The notes beneath the pieces were generated by a model. That model ran no database searches, was not told the origin of the DNA, and saw only the letters and a list, made by a program, of their open reading frames with translations. This document shows, one piece after another, positions 1,719-20,620 of a stretch of DNA of 64,000 nt (the stretch's first letter is position 1; each line of letters opens with the position of its first letter). The DNA comes from Escherichia coli (lineage in GTDB: Bacteria; Pseudomonadota; Gammaproteobacteria; Enterobacterales; Enterobacteriaceae), in assembly GCF_024223415.1 (NCBI RefSeq), contig NZ_CP100500.1; one strand, 5' to 3'. Position numbers and translations under genes: made by a program.

Positions 1719-2015
1719 TTATCTGCTCATGGTCATATCTGAAGAAAGCGTATGTCGCACTTCGTCATTAACACCTTTTACTGCTGATCTGGCTGGTACA
1801 GTATGTAAAGTAAGCCATTCGTCAATAGCTGATGAACGCCAGCCCACAGAACCACTACCAAGACGTACCGGCCTTGGGAAGGTTGCATCGTAATATTTCG
1901 ATAACGGATTCATTTTTTCGTAAATTGTCGAACGAGATATACCTAACAATTGGCTCAGTTCAGGCATCCGTAAGATGCGTGAAGGAGTCCAGCAGTGTCC
2001 GGATTGATCTGGCAT
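1719..2015 (-). CDS. AlpA-family (prophage CP4-57 type) transcriptional regulator
   Basis: Motif ILRMPELSQLLGISRSTIYEKMNP...YDATFPRPVRLGSGSVGWRSSAIDEWL matches the AlpA helix-turn-helix pattern; start trimmed to the internal Met (MPDQ) of track ORF 1719..2114. Confidence 0.6.
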   Translation of the reverse strand: MPDQSGHCWTPSRILRMPELSQLLGISRSTIYEKMNPLSKYYDATFPRPVRLGSGSVGWRSSAIDEWLTLHTVPARSAVKGVNDEVRHTLSSDMTMSR

Positions 2016-2237
2016 TTTATCCCCCTTAGTGTGGTGAACTGTCGTTACAGTTTGTATTCCTCGGGTAAATTTTTCTGCGTAAAAAAATGGGTTGAGCAAA
2101 AAGACAATAAACAACTAAAAATCAATATGATAGGAAACAACAGCATTATTGTTATTTTACTTTTCCCTTATCGCTGTCGATTCTCATTATCATTCATGGC
2201 AAAAAAACAGTAAAAGAGGCCCTAGTAATGACTCCGG

Positions 2238-2630
2238 TCAGTAGTACATGTGCTTCGATAAATGAACCAATGGCTTTTCGTTAATTTCCACGGAGCGTGA
2301 AAAGCAAATCGTTTTCAGGGATGGGAGTTTGATGTGAGTACGAAGTATCAGATTGTTGCGCTCAATGCGCCGGGTAAATATCCTGCCGACAGGATGCTTA
2401 TCCTGTGGTACTTCTCTGGTATAACTGCACCAGTTTTCACTGGTTATCATGCCTGAGGAGAATGGCTTCAGAAGTTCCGGCAACTCACTACATGTTTCAT
2501 CAGTACGAGGACCAAAAGTGTAAGCCCGCACACCGCCAGATTTGGTGTTATACGCATACCAGAGCCAGTGCTGACGAGCTTTGTTTCCGACAAAGCTCCA
2601 TTGTTCATCAAGTTCGCATATAAGCGCCAC
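2238..2630 (-). CDS. insB: IS1-family InsB-like transposase ORF
   Basis: MALICELDEQWSFVGNKARQHWLWYAYNTK...TRRIERNNLILRTH aligns with IS1 InsB ([23 protein letters not shown]...TQRIERHNLNLRQH); the frame continues upstream of the first Met. Confidence 0.6.
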   Translation of the reverse strand: MALICELDEQWSFVGNKARQHWLWYAYNTKSGGVRAYTFGPRTDETCSELPELLKPFSSGMITSENWCSYTREVPQDKHPVGRIFTRRIERNNLILRTHIKLPSLKTICFSRSVEINEKPLVHLSKHMYY

Positions 2631-2659
2631 ATCGGCACTGGCGACTGGAGATGTGGTTA

Positions 2660-2916
2660 CTTTGCATGGTGAGCGTTTTTTAAAGTGCGAATGACTGTGT
2701 TGATACCCACCTTCAGTGTTCTGGAGGTATCGCGAACCCCGGTTCCGTTATGAGCCATTTCAACGATTTGCTCTTTAACACTTGGTTTTCGGGCTTCGCA
2801 GGTGTAATTCAGTTGAAATACACGTTTGCAGGAGCGGCACTGGAAACAGTGCTGTGACCGTGACGGTACACTTTATCGGAATTACAGCGGGGACAATGTA
2901 CGGTAACTGTTGCCAT
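2660..2916 (-). pseudogene. insA: IS1-family InsA-like ORF with an apparent frameshift in the N-terminal zinc-finger region
   Basis: Reverse translation gives MATVTVHCPRCNSDKVYRHGHSTV then a stop; another frame continues QHCFQCRSCKRVFQLNYT...VEMAHNGTGVRDTSRTLKVGINTVIRTLKN, which is InsA-like. Confidence 0.45.
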
Positions 2917-3111
2917 ATGGACTCCGGATACCAACAGAATACCCCATTAATCTGCCCCCGGAAGTCATCCCGGTGCCTTCTGACATAATCTGTTAATACA
3001 TGAATTATTGCCCTGTTCAGAAAATATTAATTAAAAAATGAAAACCAGTTAACAGAAAAGCCACATGACATAATGTTAAAATTTTATATCGTGCAATAAA
3101 AGGAGAATGTT

Positions 3112-4938
3112 ATGTACAATTTTATCACTATAATGTATGATGTCTTTTCATGTTTTGGTGTTCTGGCTAAAAACCAGAATATCCGTGACATCCGAAATAT
3201 TAAAAACTTTTCCTCACATCAACATTCACTGGCCGACATGTTTGATGAATTAACATACATTATTGACAAAGAACAGGTACTGAGCACAGAACAACGAAAA
3301 GTTATATTCAGGAGATATGAAGATCTGTATGTTAAACTCATGCACTATTCTGTTTTTACAGACAAAACACATCAAATAATAAAACAAAAATATTTTAATG
3401 ATGTTGTTCCAATGATTCTCGCGCTCGACATCAGGAACACATATCGCCCGGATAATGAGATGGCATTTTACTATCATATCCATTCTTTTCTCACTCAGAT
3501 ACCGGATAATGAGGATGATATATATCATGCTGTAAGGACATATATGAGAAATTATGTTAAGTTATGTTTATCCGGATACACACCAACGAATGCGCATTTC
3601 AAAAATATCTTTGATGGAGTATATGAATTCATTCGTAATATTCGCAAAAACAGTACACCCGGAAAAACAAAACTTATTGCAGCTATCAACATATGCAAAG
3701 AAGCCTGTAAATATCTGCTTTGTTTAAGTGATAAAGACAAGGAAATAATATTTTCCGACTTAGATAAAATTCAGGTTGCATGTTATTCTCTCACTATATT
3801 ACTGGCTTTCGAAAGACGAACATCATTAACAAGTAACCTGGCAACTTTATATAAAATGCTGATAAACGAAAGAGAAGTTTCAGAATATGAATGTCAGCAA
3901 TTATATTTAATCAACCCAATAGATGTAATGAATATACTGAACAAATACATATATTACTTCCCTGGTGAGAATTCACCTCTTTATACACTGAAAATTGACA
4001 GTGCATTATCGTGGGATGCCATTGATGCAATACGAGACTATAGTATTTCTGATATTTATCTTTATCCTGAACAAAAAACAATAAATTGTATCGTTGAGAT
4101 TGAAAACATTGTCTTTGGCGGTTACATTTATACATTGAGCGACGGCGTCACATTACAAAATATGGAAAACACTTTAAAAGATTCCTCATGTCATTATGTA
4201 TTAAATGGCTATACAGAATTTGTTAACTGTTTAAGACAACTTACTTCAGGAAAGACTGAAAGTGTTCAGCGTACCATTAATAAACTGGAGTACGAAAAAT
4301 TACCTTTTGGATTTATCATTGCCGCGTTTGCTATATTAAAAATAGCATTTAAGATAAAGTTCAGTAAAAATCATGTAAATACCAGGGCATTATTAAATGA
4401 CATCAGTTATTTTATGACTTATCAGGGCGAGTCCATTAATCTTATTTCACTGGATCATGAATATCCAGAGTTCCGTCTTCAAAATGACACAAATACATAT
4501 TTATTGGGAAGGATGATATTTCTATATAACTCAATGATCTATAAATTCAGAAACTGCCAGGAACATGAAACCAATAACATTAACTCAGTTATGATAAATA
4601 ACCTATTACAGGAAGTTGATATAGCCCTTGGTAAAATAAATGACATTATAGACAGCAGAAACATATCAGTCCCCCATGAACTGGCAAATATTCTTATCCA
4701 CGAAAAAATACTTACAACACGTGAAAAAAAAGGAAACCTGATAAGCCTGTTTGATGGATTCACTTTATTCCATTGTGTTGGAATGATAACCTTTCTTATC
4801 CATTACCTCAGAACTCCTGAAGAAAAAGTAGAAAATGTATTTATGTTATATGGTGCAGATAAAAACAATAAACTACGCAGAAGACTGATTTATGATGCAC
4901 TAGAAATAATTCAGTCTCAGCAGGAGATGAAACCTTAA
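3112..4938 (+). CDS. Hypothetical 608-aa protein; AT-rich orphan cargo gene with no recognisable motif
   Basis: Long ORF with canonical AAGGAG Shine-Dalgarno 8 nt upstream of the ATG; AT-rich composition; no P-loop, HEPN, nuclease or transmembrane signature seen by eye. Confidence 0.8.
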   Translation: MYNFITIMYDVFSCFGVLAKNQNIRDIRNIKNFSSHQHSLADMFDELTYIIDKEQVLSTEQRKVIFRRYEDLYVKLMHYSVFTDKTHQIIKQKYFNDVVPMILALDIRNTYRPDNEMAFYYHIHSFLTQIPDNEDDIYHAVRTYMRNYVKLCLSGYTPTNAHFKNIFDGVYEFIRNIRKNSTPGKTKLIAAINICKEACKYLLCLSDKDKEIIFSDLDKIQVACYSLTILLAFERRTSLTSNLATLYKMLINEREVSEYECQQLYLINPIDVMNILNKYIYYFPGENSPLYTLKIDSALSWDAIDAIRDYSISDIYLYPEQKTINCIVEIENIVFGGYIYTLSDGVTLQNMENTLKDSSCHYVLNGYTEFVNCLRQLTSGKTESVQRTINKLEYEKLPFGFIIAAFAILKIAFKIKFSKNHVNTRALLNDISYFMTYQGESINLISLDHEYPEFRLQNDTNTYLLGRMIFLYNSMIYKFRNCQEHETNNINSVMINNLLQEVDIALGKINDIIDSRNISVPHELANILIHEKILTTREKKGNLISLFDGFTLFHCVGMITFLIHYLRTPEEKVENVFMLYGADKNNKLRRRLIYDALEIIQSQQEMKP

Positions 4939-4961
4939 ACAGGAAAATTATTTTTTATAAA

Positions 4962-4986
4962 CAGGGGATTATTGAGTAATCCCCTG
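4962..4986. terminator. Hairpin between the convergent 608-aa gene and int
   Basis: Inverted repeat CAGGGGA...TCCCCTG flanked by A/T runs. Confidence 0.35.
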
Positions 4987-5122
4987 CTCATCAAAACCCA
5001 CTTTCCTGACAATCTGATAACTATCAGCTCAATACATTTGACATAAAAGAGATCCCTTAATTATTACCGTTACGGTCACAATCACATATCAAATCATGAT
5101 TGTACAATATACATTTTCACTA

Positions 5123-6325
5123 TTATTTATTCATAATCTGAGACATCACATAATCCGCCCATGCCTGCATCATCGGTACACGCTGCTCCAGTAGATCAGT
5201 ACGATGATATGCCGCCTCAACCTTATTTTTCAGCGTATGAGCGAGCGCCCTTTCAGCCAGATCCCGCGAATACCCCTGCTCACTACACCAGTCCCTGAAT
5301 GTTGAACGAAAACCATGTGCCGTGGCGACTCGCCCCGGAATATCACTGACGGCTTTCTTTTTACGCAGAAAACTGGTCAACACCATATCTGAAAGGATCT
5401 GCTGCTTTCTGGGTGAAGGAAACACCAGTTCATCATGCAGACCACGTATATTTTCCAGAATGTAAATAGCCTGTCGGGATAAAGGAACACGATGCTGTAC
5501 CCTGGCTTTCATTCTTTCTGCTGGTATCGTCCATATCTGCTTATGAAAATCAATTTCAGTCCAGCGCATTCCCCTGGCTTCACCCGAGCGGGTTGCTGTA
5601 AGTATCACCATTAATAACAATGCGCGGGTAACATTATAGGGTTCATCGGTATACACACTGGTCGCCACAAAAAGCGGTAACTGCCTCCATGGCATTGCGG
5701 GTTGGTGTTCATCACGTCCTCTTGTCTGCTGGGGAAGCAAATGATCAACCACATCCACAGGATTTGCCACACAAAAACCATGTGCCCATCCCCACTGCAT
5801 AACAACATGAATGCGCTGTTTAACCCGGCTTGCCGTTTCTGACAAAGTTAACCAGACTGGCCGCAGTGTTTCTGCCACGTCCGCAGCCGTAATCGAATCC
5901 AGCGTTTTCGCTCCCAGTTGAGGAAAGGCGTAATTCTCAAGCGTCGATAACCACTGCCGGACATGCTTTGGATTTTCCCATCCAGGAGACAGTTCTGCAT
6001 GTACACGTCTGGCTGCATCGGCAAATGTTGGGATAACAACTTTTTCAGCCTCAGCCTTTTTAATCTCCAGAGGATCATCACCAGCAGCAAGTTGCTCTCG
6101 CATTATCCGGGCAGTACGTGCAGCTTCAGCAATGCTGATCTCAGGGTAAGTTCCCAATCCAGCATTACGCCTTTTTTGTGTCACCGGACTTACATAACGA
6201 AAAACCCATTTACCCCGACCCTTTACTGAAGAAGGATGAAGGGTCAGTCCTGTAATTCCCCCATGGGGCAATGGTTTGTCATCAGGTTTGATATGCCTTG
6301 CTTTCGTATCCGTCAATACTGCCAT
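5123..6325 (-). CDS. int: Tyrosine integrase, P4/CP4-57 family
   Basis: 400 aa; C-terminal catalytic region HGFRSTFRDWCSEQGYSRDLAERALAHTLKNKVEAAYHRTDLLEQR is typical of P4-like integrases. Confidence 0.9.
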   Translation of the reverse strand: MAVLTDTKARHIKPDDKPLPHGGITGLTLHPSSVKGRGKWVFRYVSPVTQKRRNAGLGTYPEISIAEAARTARIMREQLAAGDDPLEIKKAEAEKVVIPTFADAARRVHAELSPGWENPKHVRQWLSTLENYAFPQLGAKTLDSITAADVAETLRPVWLTLSETASRVKQRIHVVMQWGWAHGFCVANPVDVVDHLLPQQTRGRDEHQPAMPWRQLPLFVATSVYTDEPYNVTRALLLMVILTATRSGEARGMRWTEIDFHKQIWTIPAERMKARVQHRVPLSRQAIYILENIRGLHDELVFPSPRKQQILSDMVLTSFLRKKKAVSDIPGRVATAHGFRSTFRDWCSEQGYSRDLAERALAHTLKNKVEAAYHRTDLLEQRVPMMQAWADYVMSQIMNK

Positions 6326-9633: not shown

Positions 9634-9705
9634 TTATATCATTTAGTTAATTAGTCTTTATTTTTCATTATGTTGCAAATAACAAGCCCGTCAAAAACAG
9701 TGATA

Positions 9706-9760
9706 TTAACTACACCATTAACTACACCGCTTCACGAACAATATCGAACAACCGCGAACA
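9706..9760. repeat. Left-arm repeats: AACTACACC x2 followed by CGAACA x3 (candidate integrase or accessory-factor sites)
   Basis: The same motifs recur in the same orientation at 19946-20078. Confidence 0.4.
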
Positions 9761-13525: not shown

Positions 13526-13570
13526 TTTTATTTTTACCCCCTCGTTTAAAAAGTTTTGTGTTGTGGTGCA

Positions 13571-13806
13571 CCTCCTCTACCTCTCTACACAATCATCTTT
13601 CAGGTCAGTAATGGCGCGGCTTTCAGCGGGGTAGAGGGCTTTTTTGGCCCTCTACCTGCCATCTACCACCCCCTCACAAATGCCCTGAATTATGGTAGAG
13701 GGTGTAGAGGGCTTTTAAGTACCTTCTACCTGCCATCTACCCAATCTATCAACATGAAATATATGTAATTATTTTCTTAAGGTAGAAGGGGTAGAGGGCT
13801 TTTGTC
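13571..13806. repeat. Iteron cluster; candidate satellite replication origin
   Basis: At least three copies of GGTAGAGGGCTTTT and repeated CTACCTGCCATCTACC, including the palindrome GGTAGAGGGC-TTTTTTG-GCCCTCTACC, immediately 3' of the primase gene. Confidence 0.55.
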
Positions 13807-13811
13807 TAAAA

Positions 13812-15560
13812 CTATAAAAACGCGTCGCAGTCGTCTGTTGTTGTCACGTTGGTTTGCGTAACCCCTTTAATCCTGCGCGTTATATATTCATGTCCGTAAA
13901 CTTTCGCCGCTGGCTTCATGGCCTTGCTGAACTCAGCCACGTTCAGCGGTTTGCTCCTGCCTGCATACGCCATAAACGCCAGATAGACGCGGTAAAGGCT
14001 GTTTCTGGTCGTGTACTTCACGGAATCGCCACCGCCCCCCATCATCAGGCCACGTGCTTCCTCCAGAAAATTCAGGAACTGGCAAAACTCAATAACCGGA
14101 TCCGTTTGCTGCTTTATCGCCAGTGCTTCATCACCGTCACGCTGTTCCAGTAGTAAAGCCCGCGCCTTTTCAGGGTCTGCAAAGTTCGCCAGTAATCGGC
14201 GGATAATGACGGGGATTTCAGCCGCAATCCTTTCCGGTAGCTCCCTGTCTTTTTCAGCCTCACTGACGATATTGTCGAAACGAAAAATCACGCGACGACG
14301 TGCCACACCTCCGGCCCGTTCGGTGAATATCATCGGGTTATTGTTGGTCGCCAGCACCACCGCCCTGATTACAGCCGTGAAACGCTTTTCGTATTTCGGG
14401 TTAATTTCCACGGGGTCACCGCCCGTGATTTTCTTGATGCCCGTTCCTTCGCCTGTATATTTCGGCTGGTCTGCCAGGACGATAAGACGACTCCCGACAA
14501 CCTGCGCACGCCCACCAGCATCATCAAGCGATGTCATCTCAGCGCTTACCGTGTTCTGTTTCCCTGCCAGAAGGCTGGCTATGTGCGTGAATGTACTTTT
14601 ACCGCTCCCGCCGTCTCCGGTGGCCTCAATAAACATCTGCCAGTCGTACCGGTTCGCCATAATCATGTACAGCGCGGCACATATACGCATCATCTTGCGC
14701 GGGTCTTTTCCGGCTGCGTGCTCAAGCCATTTATGAAAGTTTGGCGCGTTATCGCGGATGTTCTCCCCAGGTGCTGGTGGCGTGTACTCAATGCCATTGT
14801 GCGTGGTGATCCAGTTCTCCGGCGTGTGCGGGGAAAATTCCCCCGTTTTCAGGTCAAGCGCACCATTGGCGAACGGCAGCAAATCGCCGGACGGCTCGCC
14901 CATTGGTTCGGCAATAACTTTTAACGCTTCCACGGCGTTATTGATTACGCGCTTGCTGAAAGTGGCCCTGTGCTCTGAATAGATCGCCACCATTTCGCGG
15001 CTCAGTTCCATTGTGCTGACCGGACACCATACCCCGCCGCGCCATACGTGAACGATTTCACTTTCCGGATGCACACAAACGCCATCAAATCGACCAGCAA
15101 GCATCTGTGCGCGCTCACTGTCTGCCATTTGTGCCAGTTGCGTATTTTTCTGCTCCGGCATGGTAAGCCCTGCAGCAATATTTTCACGCTCAGCATTCAG
15201 ATAACGCCGCCAGTTTTCACACTTCTGACCGTGCATTCCTTCGGGGTAAAAATTTGCGTCCTGTACGCCAGCCGCCGCCAGCTTCTGACCAATCGCCTTT
15301 ATCATTACTGGCGCAAGATATCCGGCCCTGAATATACGCACGGATTTTCTGCCTTCCGGCACAATTTGCAGCTTATCCAGTTCGGATAACTGCTGCTCCC
15401 CAAGCCACACAGGAGGCTCATTATCTCCGGCCATACGCGCGTCATGTTCCTGCCATTGTTTCGCGTGTGCCCAGGCATCACTACCCGCAAAAATAATGAC
15501 TTCAGTTCCTTTGTGTTTTATGCCGCGTGACTGCAGTTTTACGTTCGGTGCCAGTTTCAT
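13812..15560 (-). CDS. Replication protein: primase/helicase (P4 alpha-like, P-loop NTPase)
   Basis: 582 aa; Walker A GDGGSGKSTFT; size and position match satellite pri-rep genes. Confidence 0.8.
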   Translation of the reverse strand: MKLAPNVKLQSRGIKHKGTEVIIFAGSDAWAHAKQWQEHDARMAGDNEPPVWLGEQQLSELDKLQIVPEGRKSVRIFRAGYLAPVMIKAIGQKLAAAGVQDANFYPEGMHGQKCENWRRYLNAERENIAAGLTMPEQKNTQLAQMADSERAQMLAGRFDGVCVHPESEIVHVWRGGVWCPVSTMELSREMVAIYSEHRATFSKRVINNAVEALKVIAEPMGEPSGDLLPFANGALDLKTGEFSPHTPENWITTHNGIEYTPPAPGENIRDNAPNFHKWLEHAAGKDPRKMMRICAALYMIMANRYDWQMFIEATGDGGSGKSTFTHIASLLAGKQNTVSAEMTSLDDAGGRAQVVGSRLIVLADQPKYTGEGTGIKKITGGDPVEINPKYEKRFTAVIRAVVLATNNNPMIFTERAGGVARRRVIFRFDNIVSEAEKDRELPERIAAEIPVIIRRLLANFADPEKARALLLEQRDGDEALAIKQQTDPVIEFCQFLNFLEEARGLMMGGGGDSVKYTTRNSLYRVYLAFMAYAGRSKPLNVAEFSKAMKPAAKVYGHEYITRRIKGVTQTNVTTTDDCDAFL

Positions 15561-15856
15561 TTTTTACCCCTGAATCCGTTAATCATGGTTTTCATCTTCT
15601 GAATATTGGCGCGTGCTTTCTCCCTGCTGGTGGGCACGTTACGCGGTACGGCCTGCACAAGAGAAAAATCACGCACAAACTGATAAACAGGCATCACGCA
15701 ATCATATTCGTAACCTTCATGGCGGTAGGTGATGCGCCGTTCTGCCACGCCTTTAATCGTTACCGTACCGCCGTAGTTATCACGGAAAATATCGCCGGGA
15801 CGGATTTCAGGCCGAGTGAGGCCGCTGGCAGTAAAGCCAGAATTTTTCTTTTTCAT
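15557..15856 (-). CDS. Hypothetical protein (99 aa), coupled to the primase gene
   Basis: Stop overlaps the primase start (ATGA). Confidence 0.6.
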   Translation of the reverse strand: MKKKNSGFTASGLTRPEIRPGDIFRDNYGGTVTIKGVAERRITYRHEGYEYDCVMPVYQFVRDFSLVQAVPRNVPTSREKARANIQKMKTMINGFRGKK

Positions 15857-15886: not shown

Positions 15887-16060
15887 TTATTCCGGCGCGA
15901 ATACAGGCTTCAGAAAAAAAGCCAGAGAACCAATAACCTCATTATTTCTAAGGCGGCATTGCGATTTCACTTTCCCTTTATCCAGGAATATCAAAACGCG
16001 CCCCGTATAATCAGATGGCACATTAAGCACTACAGGTAAGTGCGCTTCATGATTATTCAT
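15887..16060 (-). CDS. Hypothetical small protein (57 aa)
   Basis: Start trimmed to the ATG preceded by AGGAGGTGG; N-terminus MNNHEAHLPVVLNV; start overlaps the stop of the upstream gene. Confidence 0.5.
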   Translation of the reverse strand: MNNHEAHLPVVLNVPSDYTGRVLIFLDKGKVKSQCRLRNNEVIGSLAFFLKPVFAPE

Positions 16061-16340
16061 GGCTAACCACCTCCTGGAATTTTCTTCTGTAACGCGCCTC
16101 TGCCACATATTCAGCATAGTCCGACGCAATATTGAGAATATCGCTACCCGTTCCTGAATGTTCGGCGGTTTCCAGTAAAAAACATGCAGCTTTTACCATG
16201 TCAGCAACACATAACAGCGCAATATCTGTATCTTCCGGTGTGCCATCAAATTCCTGTTTCAGGGCATTAAAACGATCATCACGCATAACCCCATATTCAC
16301 AATCAGCAATCAGGATGGCTTTGGCCTCATTCAGTGCCAT
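16053..16340 (-). CDS. Hypothetical protein; N-terminal extent uncertain (may start at 16496)
   Basis: Only the C-terminal 95-147 codons of the 662-aa track ORF look protein-like (MALNEAKAILIADCEYGVMRDDRFNALKQEFDGTPEDTDIALLCVADMVKAACFLLETAEHS). Confidence 0.4.
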   Translation of the reverse strand: MALNEAKAILIADCEYGVMRDDRFNALKQEFDGTPEDTDIALLCVADMVKAACFLLETAEHSGTGSDILNIASDYAEYVAEARYRRKFQEVVSHE

Positions 16341-16494
16341 ATCAGCGGTAAGCTGTGCGTAGGCCAGCAAATGCGGGATTATTGCCCCTGTATATTCCGG
16401 CTCTCTGATAATGTGGTCGGATGTGTTGATTAAATAGTTTGTGCGAAAAATGCACCTGTAACCATCAGTTAACAACGGATATACAGGGGGGACC

Positions 16495-16665
16495 ATGAAT
16501 GATAAGGGGGTGCCGTTTGATGTGCTCCTGCAAAAGCTGAATGCTGCACGCGCCGCAAGGGAACGTGAGCGCATGAGTAATAACCCTGTCCCTCCTGAAT
16601 TACCTCGCCCTGAACATTTTCCGCTTGAGGATTTCATCAGGGGACGAATCCGAACAAAACGATAA
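16495..16665 (+). CDS. Small protein (56 aa), paralog of the 16909 ORF
   Basis: ATG preceded by a G-rich Shine-Dalgarno; shares the PxxFPLE(D/R)FI motif with ORF 16909..17103; below the track length cutoff. Confidence 0.35.
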   Translation: MNDKGVPFDVLLQKLNAARAARERERMSNNPVPPELPRPEHFPLEDFIRGRIRTKR

Positions 16666-16908
16666 CCGCCGCCGTGATATGAGGCATCACGACGCAATGC
16701 ATTACAGGTGAGCACCATGAACAAATCCATATTATCCCCCACAGTTCTGGACGTAAACACAAAGCAGCGACAGATATTATTACGCGCCGTCATTAAAGCC
16801 AGACACGAGAAATTAAACCAAATCTTAAAATAAGATACGCCGCTACCGCTGTAAGTCTTCATCAGAAACAGAAAACGCCAGAGCAGATGAGCACGGAGGT
16901 AACTCTTT

Positions 16909-17103
16909 ATGAAAATAAACGAATCAGGGGAAATTACCGAAGCCAGCGTGGTACGCCAGCGGAGGCGGGAACGACGGGTACGGCCCCCCGCGCCATCCGA
17001 TAATTTCCCGCTTGAGCGCTTCATCAGTGAACGGCCCCGCATACGCTGGAACGGCACAACCCCATACCCCGAGGAGAGACAGACAAAAAACAAACAGCGA
17101 TGA
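16909..17103 (+). CDS. Small protein (64 aa), paralog of the 16495 ORF
   Basis: GGAGGT Shine-Dalgarno 9 nt upstream; C-terminal FPLERFISERPRIR. Confidence 0.4.
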   Translation: MKINESGEITEASVVRQRRRERRVRPPAPSDNFPLERFISERPRIRWNGTTPYPEERQTKNKQR

Positions 17104-17382
17104 TGAAATCTGGAGGCCAATACCATCACCCAGCCAGTCGGGGATTGCTGGCGGGCTTCCTGTTCGCTGGTGGCCCCGATGGTAATAACGCGTGGTTGTG
17201 CTGTGCTCAGGGCGATAAAACGCCAGATGTATTTATTCAGGTTGTGCGGGTCCCGCCCTTGCGGGTGTGTGGTATGATTTAACATAGCTACCTCGATACG
17301 CTTTCTATCGTTGGTGGTTAGAAGCCCCGTTACTGCTCCAACAGTGCGGGGTTTCGTCGTTTCTGCACCTTTCATCAACAAG

Positions 17383-17434
17383 GTGTTGAACACCAATTTA
17401 AGCCTAGGTGTTAAACACGCCAAGTGTTGAACAC
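17383..17434 (+). promoter_or_regulatory. Three palindromic operator-like sites GTGTT(G/A)AACAC
   Basis: Sites at 17383-17393, 17408-17418 and 17424-17434, about 50 bp upstream of the small gene at 17485. Confidence 0.55.
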
Positions 17435-17484
17435 TTATTTTTTTTCCTGCATACTGCATTTGTTTTTTGTAAGGGGTACACAAC

Positions 17485-17664
17485 ATGGCGACAAAAGCAG
17501 TAAACGCAAAATCACAAACAGTTGCGGCAAGGGTTCCGCATGAAGTTATGAACAATGTTGAGGCGGTAAAAATGCCTGGTGAAAGTACAGGGCAGTTTGT
17601 AACAGCAGCATTAAAGCGAGAAGTTGAATACCGCCAGCGCCGCAAGGCCAAAGAATCAGAATAA
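17485..17664 (+). CDS. Small DNA-binding protein, ribbon-helix-helix-like (59 aa)
   Basis: AAGGGG Shine-Dalgarno; N-terminal strand-like TVAARVPHEVMNNVEAV then a basic helix; downstream of the palindromic operators. Confidence 0.45.
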   Translation: MATKAVNAKSQTVAARVPHEVMNNVEAVKMPGESTGQFVTAALKREVEYRQRRKAKESE

Positions 17665-17712
17665 TCACTATCAGCGCCGTGGTGTGAGGTACTGCGGCGC
17701 ATTGTTTTAAAG

Positions 17713-17913
17713 GTGATAATTATGAATAACCAGGAACTACAAAATAAAGCATTATCAATTATCATGCGCCAGCGTGAGAAAACCCGCAGGGAAATAAATA
17801 AGGCATTAACCCGTACTGAAAATCTTAAAGTTCCTGATAAGTTCGCCCTTGATCCTTTTGTCGAGAAATACCCTCGGCGCTTAAAAGCAAACAAAAACCG
17901 CCCACCTGGCTGA
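17713..17913 (+). CDS. Hypothetical small protein (66 aa)
   Basis: AGGTGA Shine-Dalgarno; basic helical sequence. Confidence 0.4.
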   Translation: MIIMNNQELQNKALSIIMRQREKTRREINKALTRTENLKVPDKFALDPFVEKYPRRLKANKNRPPG

Positions 17914-18051
17914 CAATCCACCAGCAAGCCACCACACTGGACACATTGCCCACCAGCCAGCAAATCGCTATGATGTTCGGGCTTATGTTTAGTGTTTTCC
18001 CATTGGCGACCGCCCCCGGTCGCCTTTGTTTTATGTGTCATATACTCCCCT

Positions 18052-18348
18052 TTACGCTGCCTTGCCTGAATTAATGCGATCCCGGCTTTTAACCCATTCC
18101 ATAACCTCGGACAGCAGCCAACCTACAGAACGCCCACCAAGATTACGGCGAGACGGAAAGCTCCCTTTTTTCTCCAGTTCGTAGCGTGTAGTGCGACACA
18201 CTCCAGTTAACTTACGACATTCATCCTCACGGATTACGCGATCTTCATTTATTTCACGCATACAAAAACCTACATAAAAATTACGTATATAAACTTTTCT
18301 CTTAGCTGTAGATATATGAGATCGGATATTACTTAGATTCTTTTTCAC
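18052..18348 (-). CDS. AlpA-family transcriptional regulator
   Basis: C-terminal TRYELEKKGSFPSRRNLGGRSVGWLLSEVMEWV matches the AlpA pattern; true start may be an internal Met. Confidence 0.7.
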   Translation of the reverse strand: MKKNLSNIRSHISTAKRKVYIRNFYVGFCMREINEDRVIREDECRKLTGVCRTTRYELEKKGSFPSRRNLGGRSVGWLLSEVMEWVKSRDRINSGKAA

Positions 18349-18680: not shown

Positions 18681-19919
18681 TCAAGAATTTTGGGGGTAAA
18701 TTCGCGGGGTCATAACAACGATTTTTTCATCATTGTTCTGGAGAAGCTCGAGACGGTCTACCCATAGATTAAGAGCGTCACGCTTTGCATCGAGATAACG
18801 GGAGTGGTTATAGACGCGTTGCATTCCTGGCATCTGGTGGGCAGTAAGCTGTTCAACAATATGCGGATCCACGCCTAAATCGTTCAGCATGGTTGTAAAT
18901 GTGTGCCGGATGTCGTGCAACGACCAGGGGGCTTGATTAATGCGTCTGTGTGCCGTTCTTCCGTACTCTGCTACGGATGATTGCCCTTTCAGTTCTCCAA
19001 GCAATAAGCCCGTGTGCCTGTTCTGCTCCACCAGCTTCATGACGAACGGCAAGATCGCTTCCGGTATTGGCCTGAATATTGCTACCTTCGTTTTGCTGTG
19101 TTCTTTCGGCACAGTCCAGAGCATTTCTTTAAAATCCCATTCCCGAACCTCGGAGCGTCTTAGCTCAGTGGTACGGCATCCGAAGACAATCAGAAGGCGA
19201 ATTAAAGCGCTGTAGTACGGCGGGAAAATTTTTTCATCCAGTGCGCGGAGTAGCTCGCCAAGCTCCTTGTTTGTTAGCACTCGCTCGCTTATTTCTGCTT
19301 TTTTTCCCACATCACCTACGACCATATCATCAAGAACGTTACTGACGGCGTAGCGACGTTTACGGCAGTACTTAAGCGCCTGTTTGCATACCTGCAACAA
19401 AAAGCCGGCTGATACCGGATTACGCTTAGCAAGCTGGTCAAAACAGGCCAGCCAGTGGCGTAGCTCGCATTTATCCAGCGGCATAGCACCAATCTGGCTG
19501 ATTATGTGCTTATTGATACGGCTTTTCAGTGATTCGTGGTCAGTGCGCTTTTCCTTCGCATACGACTCAAGCCAGTAAGTGAGCGCGTCCTTAACCGTCA
19601 CGGGGGCTAACGCTTCCTGCACTGTGTGATTAAGCTCATGGCGTGGATTTTTCCCCTCCGCCAGCCAGGCGCGACACTGTGCCGCTTTTTCCCTGGCTGC
19701 TTTCAGGCTCAGATCGGGATAGTTGCCCAGTCTCAGGCGTTCCGGTGATACCTGCCTGCCAGTTCCGGCCCTGTAAGTGAAATACCAGGTTAACAGGCCG
19801 CTGGTGGAATGTCTTACGCTAAGATTGCCACCGTCATTAAAAAAGGCGTTTTTTGTGGTTGGTGATCCGCTTAATTTTCGTAAAAGAGTGTCGCTAAGTC
19901 TATGAATTGCGCTGCTCAT
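18681..19919 (-). CDS. int: Tyrosine integrase
   Basis: 412 aa; catalytic region LHDIRHTFTTMLNDLGVDPHIVEQLTAHQMPGMQRVYNHSRY. Confidence 0.9.
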   Translation of the reverse strand: MSSAIHRLSDTLLRKLSGSPTTKNAFFNDGGNLSVRHSTSGLLTWYFTYRAGTGRQVSPERLRLGNYPDLSLKAAREKAAQCRAWLAEGKNPRHELNHTVQEALAPVTVKDALTYWLESYAKEKRTDHESLKSRINKHIISQIGAMPLDKCELRHWLACFDQLAKRNPVSAGFLLQVCKQALKYCRKRRYAVSNVLDDMVVGDVGKKAEISERVLTNKELGELLRALDEKIFPPYYSALIRLLIVFGCRTTELRRSEVREWDFKEMLWTVPKEHSKTKVAIFRPIPEAILPFVMKLVEQNRHTGLLLGELKGQSSVAEYGRTAHRRINQAPWSLHDIRHTFTTMLNDLGVDPHIVEQLTAHQMPGMQRVYNHSRYLDAKRDALNLWVDRLELLQNNDEKIVVMTPRIYPQNS

Positions 19920-19945
19920 GTTTCGCGTTTCCGGTCATCAAAATT

Positions 19946-20078
19946 AACTACACCATTGACTACACCGTGCATCGTACAAGGGCAAACCGTGACGAACAAG
20001 AGCGAACAAGTAAAACAAAATTTTCCTTTATAATCATAGCGATGAATGCACACAAAACACTACCACGAACACCCGCGA
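19946..20078. repeat. Right-arm repeats: AACTACACC / GACTACACC followed by CGAACA motifs
   Basis: Same motifs and orientation as the left arm at 9706-9760; overlaps the int promoter region. Confidence 0.4.
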
Positions 20079-20103: not shown

Positions 20104-20323
20104 CTATCGTTGGCATCAGCGACATCTGTCACATTCCTGTCAATAGCGTTAACTGCTTCAAATTTTTGATTCATACCTGCCCCCTGTCCCCTGTCAAATG
20201 CTTGACGGCTCGCCCTAATTCTCTAAATTGTATTTCTAGAGTTGGCGAGGTTTTGAACAGCCCCCTCTCTGACCCCGGTTTATTCCATCTTACTTGTATA
20301 AGATTTGCGAAGGATGTCGAAGC

Positions 20324-20548
20324 ATGGAAAAGGGTACTGTTAAGTGGTTCAACAATGCCAAAGGGTTTGGTTTCATCTGCCCTGAAGGCGGCGGCGAAGA
20401 TATTTTCGCTCATTATTCCACCATTCAGATGGATGGTTACAGAACGCTAAAAGCTGGACAATCCGTTCAGTTTGATGTCCACCAGGGGCCAAAAGGCAAT
20501 CACGCCAGTGTTATTGTGCCCGTCGAAGTAGAAGCGGCAGTCGCATAG
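20324..20548 (+). CDS. cspD: Cold-shock-like protein CspD
   Basis: MEKGTVKWFNNAKGFGFICPEGGGEDIFAHYSTIQMDGYRTLKAGQSVQFDVHQGPKGNHASVIVPV; start trimmed to the ATG with AAGGA Shine-Dalgarno. Confidence 0.95.
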   Translation: MEKGTVKWFNNAKGFGFICPEGGGEDIFAHYSTIQMDGYRTLKAGQSVQFDVHQGPKGNHASVIVPVEVEAAVA

Positions 20549-20581
20549 CTCTTCTGTCTCATTGTGTACATCCTAAAGGCA

Positions 20582-20611
20582 AAATGCCAGCCCGATCGGC
20601 TGGCATTTTTA
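20582..20611. terminator. Bidirectional terminator between cspD and macB
   Basis: AAAATGCCAGCC-CGAT-CGGCTGGCATTTT hairpin flanked by A and T runs. Confidence 0.6.
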
Positions 20612-20620
20612 TCTCAAAAA

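Follow-up and report, generated by a model that had tools for sequence, protein, structure and literature searches.

Overlapping small genes upstream of a primase as the probable tail of a translated alpA-to-primase chain in an Escherichia coli phage satellite

How are the small genes in front of the primase gene of an Escherichia coli phage satellite translated, each from its own ribosome-binding site or by ribosomes handed on from the gene before? The question is raised by positions 15,887 to 16,340 of the stretch of DNA that we analysed as a whole (64,000 nucleotides (nt) of contig NZ_CP100500.1, assembly GCF_024223415.1; hereafter the window), where a gene of 57 amino acids (aa) begins before the reading frame upstream of it has ended. 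A first-pass annotation had read this place as part of a tightly coupled replication operon of four genes, encoding proteins of 95, 57 and 99 aa and the primase. In our reading the small genes are probably the tail of a longer, near-unbroken translated chain, which leads from alpA to the primase in a satellite of the phage-inducible chromosomal island (PICI) type and is coupled at its overlaps. The junctions next to the primase are made up of the following elements.

16067-16075, minus strand: Shine-Dalgarno sequence (SD) AGGAGGTGG of the 57-aa gene, within the upstream coding frame
16053-16060, minus strand: 8-nt start/stop overlap ATGAATAA, read from the sequence
15887-16060, minus strand: 57-aa gene of the phrog_340 family (E=7e-15)
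15557-15856, minus strand: DUF4222 gene, 99 aa (Pfam: PF13973, E=8e-23; also named DUF4222 by the NCBI Prokaryotic Genome Annotation Pipeline, PGAP)
15557-15560, minus strand: ATGA stop/start overlap of the DUF4222 gene and the primase gene, read from the sequence
13812-15560, minus strand: primase/helicase gene, 582 aa (Pfam: D5_N, DUF5906 and Pox_D5; phrog_864, DNA primase, E=7e-169)

The start codon of the 57-aa gene (ATG, 16060-16058) overlaps the upstream frame's stop codon (TAA, 16055-16053), the minus strand reading ...CAG GAG GTG GTT AGC CAT GAA TAA. Both this overlap and the position of the ribosome-binding site within the upstream coding sequence had been pointed out in the first-pass annotation, and both are as it described them. 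AGGAGGTGG sits 6 nt before the ATG, with its AGGAGG core 9 nt before, and its predicted pairing with the 3' end of the 16S rRNA amounts to -14.8 kcal/mol. As only 0.2% of the ATGs in the window (n=2249) reach -12 kcal/mol, this SD is among the strongest. An alternative start of the gene at TTG 16129, which would give a protein of 80 aa, was rejected: it has no SD (-0.2 kcal/mol), and the ATG with its SD is conserved everywhere.

The junction was compared in 66 rows, which are 65 related loci and the window. The ATG of the 57-aa gene, or of its 66-aa counterpart in most relatives, overlaps the upstream stop codon by 8 nt in 59 of the 66 rows and by 14 nt in 7. GGAGG or GGGGG is found 6-8 nt before the start in all rows, even where the upstream gene is non-homologous. 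At the other junction the 4-nt overlap of DUF4222 and primase, which had likewise been noted before, is present at 15557-15560 in the window and, as ATGA or GTGA, in 65 of 65 loci, with many relatives starting the primase with GTG. This comparison was one of the checks that the earlier reading had proposed. Because the geometry and the SD motif are kept across related loci, the conserved 8-nt and 4-nt overlaps are not a chance arrangement. According to a 2025 review, -4, -1 and -8 are the overlap spacings that are enriched in prokaryotes (PMC12548453).

Termination-reinitiation at the two overlaps would be the likeliest mechanism. Ribosomes ending at TAA 16053 would reinitiate at ATG 16060, aided by the SD, and ribosomes ending at TGA 15557 would reinitiate at ATG 15560, which would tie the small proteins and the primase to upstream translation.

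The overlaps might instead be mere genome compaction, with each gene initiated at its own SD and independent of upstream translation, an explanation that we regard as unlikely. It draws on the exceptional strength of the 57-aa gene's SD, on the DUF4222 gene, which in the window allele must initiate by itself across a gap of 30 nt, and on the lack of a conserved inhibitory structure around the 57-aa start. On this last point, a hairpin is predicted to hide the SD and ATG in the window (-20.7 kcal/mol, z=-2.1). We do not regard this hairpin as a conserved element: RNAalifold on 14 diverse junctions gave no consensus structure around the start of the 57-aa gene, and counting of the hairpin's pairs over the relatives gave 63% paired cells with covariation not above shuffles. 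Compaction fits less well with the exact -8 and -4 geometry, which persists at the frequencies given above although the flanks vary and not even the upstream gene is always the same one. Four to five successive junctions in relatives and in phage P4 show this geometry again, and experiments in E. coli (PMC6728339, PMC10666635) have shown that stop/start overlaps of this kind couple translation. Moreover, the SD of the primase gene is only moderate (-6.7 kcal/mol; -4.3 kcal/mol for DUF4222), and its start codon is GTG in many relatives.

What, then, is the reading frame that ends at TAA 16053? It was previously taken for a gene of 95 aa starting at ATG 16340. Two features have to be considered here.

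16053-16415, minus strand: 5'-truncated remnant of a 154-aa gene (phrog_2512), including the 95-aa open reading frame (ORF) at 16053-16340 and a complete C-terminal module of 77 aa (phrog_24341)
16416-17100, frame open on the minus strand: 685-bp segment, with breakpoints from the alignment to the related locus L002

The phrog_2512 profile has 154 positions, of which the 95-aa ORF covers 60-153 and the longer ORF 31-153, and the homology runs 27 residues further upstream than ATG 16340. None of the candidate starts has an SD (ATG 16340, +1.2 kcal/mol; TTG 16370, -4.7 kcal/mol; ATG 16286, -2.1 kcal/mol). The 95-aa gene is therefore not free-standing, contrary to the first-pass annotation, and represents a truncated remnant that ends a frame of 662 codons. 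The phrog_2512 family consists of separable modules of 74 and 77 aa, and some relatives have the 154-aa gene split, with a 121-aa gene in between.

The truncation coincides with the 685-bp segment, which in the window replaces 110 bp of L002 that hold the stop codon of the Icd-like gene and the start and first ~33 codons of the 154-aa gene. The segment is rare. Of 5426 complete E. coli genomes, 9 have it, in copies that are at least 99.9% identical, and searches with megablast and blastn detected no diverged copy in the 5426 genomes and no phage match. Annotators' calls for the same DNA differ, at 95, 105, 410 or 662 aa; the 410-aa protein is named "Icd-like" by PGAP. On its plus strand the segment carries small ORFs at 16495-16665, 16717-16833 and 16909-17103, with SDs of -9.9, -6.8 and -10.9 kcal/mol. 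The small plus-strand ORFs are weakly similar among themselves (z of 3-5), two of these three share an FPLE(D/R)FI motif, and they weakly resemble a 63-aa ORF at 17722-17913. A repeat of 55 nt with 71% identity connects the segment to the region after the ylcI-like gene, scoring 30 against a shuffle maximum of 29. Together this is suggestive, not proof, that the segment originated as more of the same kind of sequence.

In the relatives, the small genes belong to chains of 5-9 coupled genes, in the order alpA, in some an Ant/Bro-like gene, a long frame with the Icd-like gene at its end, genes of 74, 121, 77 and 66 aa, DUF4222 and primase. One example is L002, with the Icd-like gene (68 aa), a 154-aa gene, the 66-aa gene, DUF4222 and primase, joined by overlaps of 11, 8 and 4 nt and one 4-nt gap. 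Another is L023, where alpA is followed by an Ant/Bro-like gene of 266 aa, a frame of 435 aa that ends in Icd, genes of 74, 121, 77 and 66 aa, DUF4222 and primase, and where successive junctions share 8-nt overlaps of the form AGC CAT GNN TAA. The 121-aa gene of L023 (3417-3779) has an N-terminal region that belongs to phrog_340, as does the 57/66-aa gene (4001-4201 in L023). The shared family and junction motif suggest a tandem duplication of gene-plus-junction cassettes.

These observations bear on the claim of an autonomous four-gene operon with its own promoter in 16341-16500 and ATG 16340 as its first start, which we now consider quite improbable. Some annotators do call a 95- or 105-aa protein together with an opposite-strand ORF of 56 aa, and the plus-strand ORFs with good SDs make a divergent promoter region near 16416-16494 conceivable. 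However, neither ATG 16340, TTG 16370 nor ATG 16286 is served by an SD, phrog_2512 homology extends upstream of the proposed start, and relatives that do not have the 685-bp segment all carry these genes inside a longer chain. Scans for promoters and terminators within the operon gave nothing above background, with minus-strand promoter matches reaching only 8/12 of the consensus. The part of the earlier claim that stands is the set of co-directional genes before the primase with conserved -8 and -4 junctions. The number of four genes does not, as the chain in relatives has 5-9 genes and that of the window begins 10 nt after the alpA stop. Nor is the coupling tight throughout, since 57-aa and 99-aa genes are separated by the 30-nt gap with no overlap.

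Upstream of the remnant the frame continues through the following features to the alpA gene.

16053-18041, minus strand: 662-codon stop-free frame, from ATG 18041 with SD AAGGGGAG to TAA 16053-16055, taking in the Icd-like gene, the 685-bp segment and the phrog_2512 remnant
17101-17285, minus strand, nested in the long frame: Icd-like / P4 Kil-like segment with its own ATG 17285 and SD GAGGT (-7.3 kcal/mol)
17485-17664, plus strand, antisense to the long frame and divergent from the Icd-like gene: YlcI/YnfO-family gene (NCBIfam: NF041551, E=2e-16; phrog_949)
18052-18261, minus strand: alpA, a Vis-like helix-turn-helix activator gene at the head of the chain (PGAP annotation in the related locus L001; 43% identical to P4 Vis, E=6e-18)

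ATG 18041 lies 10 nt after the alpA stop codon, and its SD AAGGGGAG has a pairing energy of -7.8 kcal/mol. Over 16053-18041 this frame has one stop codon, its own TAA, and no internal one, against 34 and 44 stops in the two other minus-strand frames. From the alpA stop to the primase stop, the only untranslatable parts of the minus strand are the gaps of 10 nt and 30 nt. The Icd-like segment is recognised by the phage_ICD_like model (NCBIfam: NF033153, E=9e-14) and by phrog_1743 (E=1.6e-16).

The YlcI/YnfO-family product is a putative repressor and, judged from its sequence, may be a ribbon-helix-helix protein. Besides its gene, the long frame is also antisense to the 63-aa gene (17722-17913) and to the divergent promoter/operator interval. 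Three 13-nt repeats AGGTGTTGAACAC with the palindromic core GTGTTnAACAC are located at 17381-17434, between the starts of the Icd-like and ylcI-like genes. They overlap weak promoter matches (minus strand, TTGGCG-17-TAAATT; plus strand, TTGAAC-17-CATACT) and are likely operators. Terminator-like hairpins with T-tails were seen on the plus strand at 17674-17700, after the ylcI-like gene, and at 18005-18024, after the 63-aa gene. The latter falls in the first codons of the long minus frame and has no U-tail on the minus strand; it would halt only plus-strand transcripts before alpA.

The long frame is not peculiar to the window. In most related loci the Icd frame is open for 125-533 codons before the Icd methionine. 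Four combinations of alpA and ylcI show 0 stops between the alpA stop and this methionine, against 6-20 in the other frames, and have an ATG with SD 10-19 nt after alpA. In L002 a 396-aa ORF (4496-5686) spans the interval from alpA to Icd in a different frame and ends 20 nt before Icd, and L023 has a long stop-free frame on the operon strand at 1900-3207. Furthermore, all of the 19 distinct ylcI-like genes (19/19; 34-100% identity) have no stop in the antisense phase that sets third codon positions opposite one another, and 0-8 in the other phases. When the codon order is permuted, the probability of no stop is 0.05-0.27 per ylcI-like gene, or ~1e-9 multiplied over roughly eleven lineages. Selection thus keeps the frame opposite ylcI open, because it is stop-free across diverged lineages to a degree so rarely reached under permuted codons. 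Across the 685-bp segment the minus frame has no stop either, an outcome that 1 of 20,000 base shuffles reproduced; when the plus-strand ORFs were resampled synonymously, it recurred in 3% of cases.

An open frame of this length may also be read as a genuine multi-domain protein of 410 or 662 aa, the "Icd-like protein" of PGAP, the sequence of which would itself be important. The openness of the frame across diverged lineages would agree with this, and an Ant/Bro-like part is recognisable, in L002 as the N-terminus of the long ORF and in L023 as a gene of its own, which has 266 aa and shares 8 nt with the long ORF. Yet within the 662 aa only the Icd model of 48 positions and the phrog_2512 tail are matched in Pfam, NCBIfam or PHROGs. 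The remainder is rich in Arg, Ser, Cys, Leu and Phe and is antisense to genes that have SDs and family matches themselves, and 228 codons stem from the 685-bp segment that is present in only 9 of the 5426 genomes. We therefore hold a functional protein of this size to be highly improbable.

It remains to explain the gap between the 57-aa gene and DUF4222, and for this one further feature is needed.

15914-15920, minus strand: T7 homopolymer in the 57-aa gene, identified from T-run against ORF length in the 66 rows

The core of the 57-aa gene is a real coding sequence under purifying selection, with dN/dS values of 0.05-0.34 against relatives and 24/15/33 variable columns at the three codon positions, the third being highest. 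In the 66 rows the protein has 66 aa (n=55), 57 aa (n=9) or 50 aa (n=2), and these lengths follow the T-run. With T8 it has 66 aa in the window's sequence background, against 57 aa with T7 and 50 aa with T9; in a second sublineage the lengths of 66, 57 and 50 aa go with T7, T6 and T8. Deeper relatives have T4 at this site and still encode 66 aa. Between the window and the related loci L005 and L006, one extra T is the sole internal difference across 1.3 kb. The 57-aa gene is thus a one-T-deletion frameshift allele of the 66-aa gene. As the 66-aa form ends 4 nt before the DUF4222 ATG and the 57-aa form (stop codon 15887-15889) ends 30 nt before it, the 30-nt gap exists because of this deletion.

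A -1 reading at the T7 run gives exactly the tail of the 66-aa protein, which we regard as a curiosity and not as a mechanism that has been demonstrated. For the 57-aa protein, the AlphaFold model is a beta meander of three strands (predicted local distance difference test score, pLDDT, 72.7) with a disordered tail at residues 51-57. A PDB fold search with this model gave no match with E below 2.5 and no functional lead, and Pfam and NCBIfam have no match for the 95-aa or the 57-aa protein. That the T-run is a functional slippage site, where transcriptional slippage or a -1 frameshift on U UUU UUU would yield both 57-aa and 66-aa products and restore DUF4222 coupling in a fraction of ribosomes, is the least probable of these explanations: the exact 66-aa tail with its end 4 nt ahead of the DUF4222 ATG, the independent indels in two sublineages (T8 to T7 or T9; T7 to T6 or T8) and the single T that separates otherwise identical 1.3-kb sequences speak for it, but neither a stimulatory structure nor an SD-like element upstream was identified, the T4 of deeper relatives with the same 66-aa frame shows that the run is not ancestral, and a mutational hot spot with a dispensable disordered tail explains the data.

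Returning to the chain from alpA to the primase, ribosomes would translate it almost without a break, from alpA through the 662-codon frame, the 57-aa gene and DUF4222 into the primase. By analogy with P4, translation of the long frame from its alpA-proximal start would shield the alpA-driven transcript from Rho up to the replication genes. Nonsense mutations in P4 eta are said to have led to Rho-dependent termination at timm in the work of Forti from 1999. Alternatively, translation from the Icd start on transcripts of a putative Icd promoter near 17395-17423 could provide the shielding. In the former case the transcript would have to traverse 0.8 kb antisense to the putative repressor gene. 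The in-frame replacement by the 685-bp segment may have been tolerated because the long frame stayed open. Two links of the chain are derived in the window copy: the 685-bp replacement, which cost the Icd-like gene its stop codon and the following gene its start but left the frame open, and the one-T deletion, which shortened the 66-aa gene and uncoupled it from DUF4222. Rho polarity acts on untranslated RNA (PMC12548453). For P4, the summary of Forti 1999 given in PMC10111431 states that eta is coupled to the alpA homologue, that eta translation prevents termination and that the late promoter therefore reads through to downstream genes. AlpA is an activator of downstream PICI genes (PMC6092414). 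We infer reinitiation, protection from Rho and the promoter that feeds the chain, whereas the anatomy and its conservation, the purifying selection on the 57-aa core and the stop-free frames of diverged lineages are seen in the sequences themselves.

Several points weigh against this reading. Coupling is argued here from geometry and conservation only, and the SD of the 57-aa gene is strong enough for independent initiation. A route to coupling through RNA unfolding is without comparative support, because the SD-hiding hairpin is not conserved and shows no covariation. The link between the 57-aa gene and DUF4222 is loose in the window, because the 30-nt gap exceeds the spacing of ~20 nt at which, by one report (PMC10666635), hardly any termination-reinitiation is left in E. 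coli; DUF4222 must therefore depend on its own weak SD. A few related loci (L013, L061) have no single open frame from alpA to Icd, and in L003, a near-identical copy, an indel of 1 nt closes the long frame within the 685-bp segment. Only near-identical copies of this segment exist, and 3% of the synonymous resamplings of its plus-strand ORFs leave its frame open. Finally, the C-rich and G-poor stretches at ~17620-17540 and ~17260-17140 are only suggestive of a Rho site.

A bolder version may be put forward as a tentative possibility. The stop-free frame from alpA to the small genes could serve as a bridge that must be translated and that is dual-coded, antisense to the repressor gene, and in which rearrangements survive only if they are in frame and stop-free, and the T-run could act as a second, mutational switch on DUF4222 and primase. 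AlpA-driven transcripts would then reach the primase only while ribosomes cross the repressor locus.

The chain is part of a satellite island of ~10.25 kb, located between cspD/yljB and clpS, with all operon features on the minus strand. A 15-bp direct repeat ATTAACTACACCATT at 9705-9719 and 19943-19957, on either side of the island, is likely its attachment (att) core. At one island end, adjoining alpA, lies the integrase gene.

18681-19919: int, tyrosine integrase gene (named by PGAP in L001)

A copy of the island that is 99.9% identical to the window is found in E. coli Br_112_kylling (L001), for which a PGAP annotation is available. It lists an integrase, a helix-turn-helix regulator of the alpA type, two small genes on the opposite strand (one of the YlcI/YnfO family), the 410-aa "Icd-like protein", a 57-aa hypothetical protein, DUF4222, primase, SSB, PerC, ProQ/FinO and the terminase small subunit; genes for capsid, tail or lysis are not among them. 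The 286-nt gap directly 3' of the primase holds, at 13570-13805, at least 10 copies of GGTAGAGGG/CCCTCTACC, which occur in both orientations, and this iteron cluster is probably the satellite replication origin. The island therefore has int next to alpA, a primase followed by a candidate origin, a size in the range of ~10-15 kb, att repeats and a terminase small subunit gene (terS), and no full virion or lysis set, as expected of PICIs. It is an E. coli PICI-type phage satellite, and the small genes form the downstream part of its early (replication) operon. Beside the island, the cspA thermoregulator of Rfam is matched over the cspD leader and gene (20219-20612, plus strand), at 41.6 bits and thus below its gathering score of 78.

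The coupling feature itself is ordinary for satellites and phages, and the island is another satellite with a P4-like early operon. Of more interest, outside the coordinates of this feature, are the frame opposite the putative repressor gene, the in-frame replacement and the T-run that would toggle the DUF4222/primase link. For annotation, the 410-aa "Icd-like protein" is in fact a Kil/Icd-like gene of 61 aa, from which reading continues through a rare insertion and on into a neighbour that is truncated. The stop-free frame opposite the repressor offers a testable handle on how AlpA-activated transcripts pass the immunity region in islands that do not have the RNA immunity of P4, and the T7/T8 alleles together with the in-frame replacement are natural variants for questions of coupling and polarity.

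How does the window compare with known systems? With experimentally studied termination-reinitiation pairs (Huber 2019, PMC6728339; Huber 2023, PMC10666635; PMC12548453) it shares co-directional genes, the -8 overlap ATGAATAA, the -4 overlap ATGA and an SD within the upstream ORF. It differs from them in the 30-nt gap at the junction of the 57-aa gene and DUF4222, which is past the reported reinitiation distance, and in that coupling in the window is predicted from geometry. The layout of the island matches the published description of Gram-negative PICIs such as EcCICFT073 (Fillol-Salom 2018, PMC6092414), with int, alpA, primase and terS in common. It also agrees with the integration, Bro and replication zones of Mageeney 2023 (PMC10111431), the iterons following right after the primase. 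What sets the window copy apart is the rare 685-bp replacement, by which the Icd-like frame is fused to a truncated downstream gene, and the frameshift allele of the 66-aa gene.

The closest parallel in gene order is the left (alpha) operon of phage P4, which consists of vis, eta with the nested kil, epsilon, orf151, orf106 and alpha and has the same order of functional types as the window. AlpA is 43% identical to P4 Vis, and the window primase is 39.5% identical to residues 326-762 of P4 alpha (E=1e-110). In P4 the vis stop codon overlaps the ATGs of eta, and in the window the long frame begins 10 nt after the alpA stop. The kil gene of P4 (65 aa) makes up the 3' end of eta in the same frame, and the Icd-like segment of the window is likewise nested in frame in a long ORF; P4 Kil (E=2e-21) and this segment belong to the same family, phrog_1743. 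The arrangement found in the window, with a Kil-type gene closing, in frame, a longer ORF that starts near the Vis/AlpA stop, is also kept in several lineages. The P4 junctions of Kil and epsilon (GGAGGTGtcccGTGcgTAA) and of epsilon and orf151 (ATGttTGA) are both 8-nt overlaps, preceded by GGAGGTG or GGGGAG.

There are differences as well. P4 has CI/C4 and isrK-like RNAs, which served as the positive control of our Rfam scan, while neither C4 nor isrK (seqA-like) was detected in the window (E<=1), nor in L002 or L023 at the gathering score. In their stead the window has, unlike P4, the divergent YlcI/YnfO-family gene and the three operator-like repeats, lying antisense within the long frame. 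The small genes of the window (phrog_2512, phrog_340 and DUF4222) fall in PHROGs other than those of epsilon, orf151 and orf106. A relationship of the 154-aa family to P4 epsilon was considered and rejected, as one weak local match (21 aa, E=0.004) is unsupported by PHROG membership. None of psu, sid, delta and epsilon is annotated in the island, which thus does not carry the core set of P4-like satellites. The operon of the window is built like that of P4, yet the island is not a P4-like satellite and fits the definition of a PICI.

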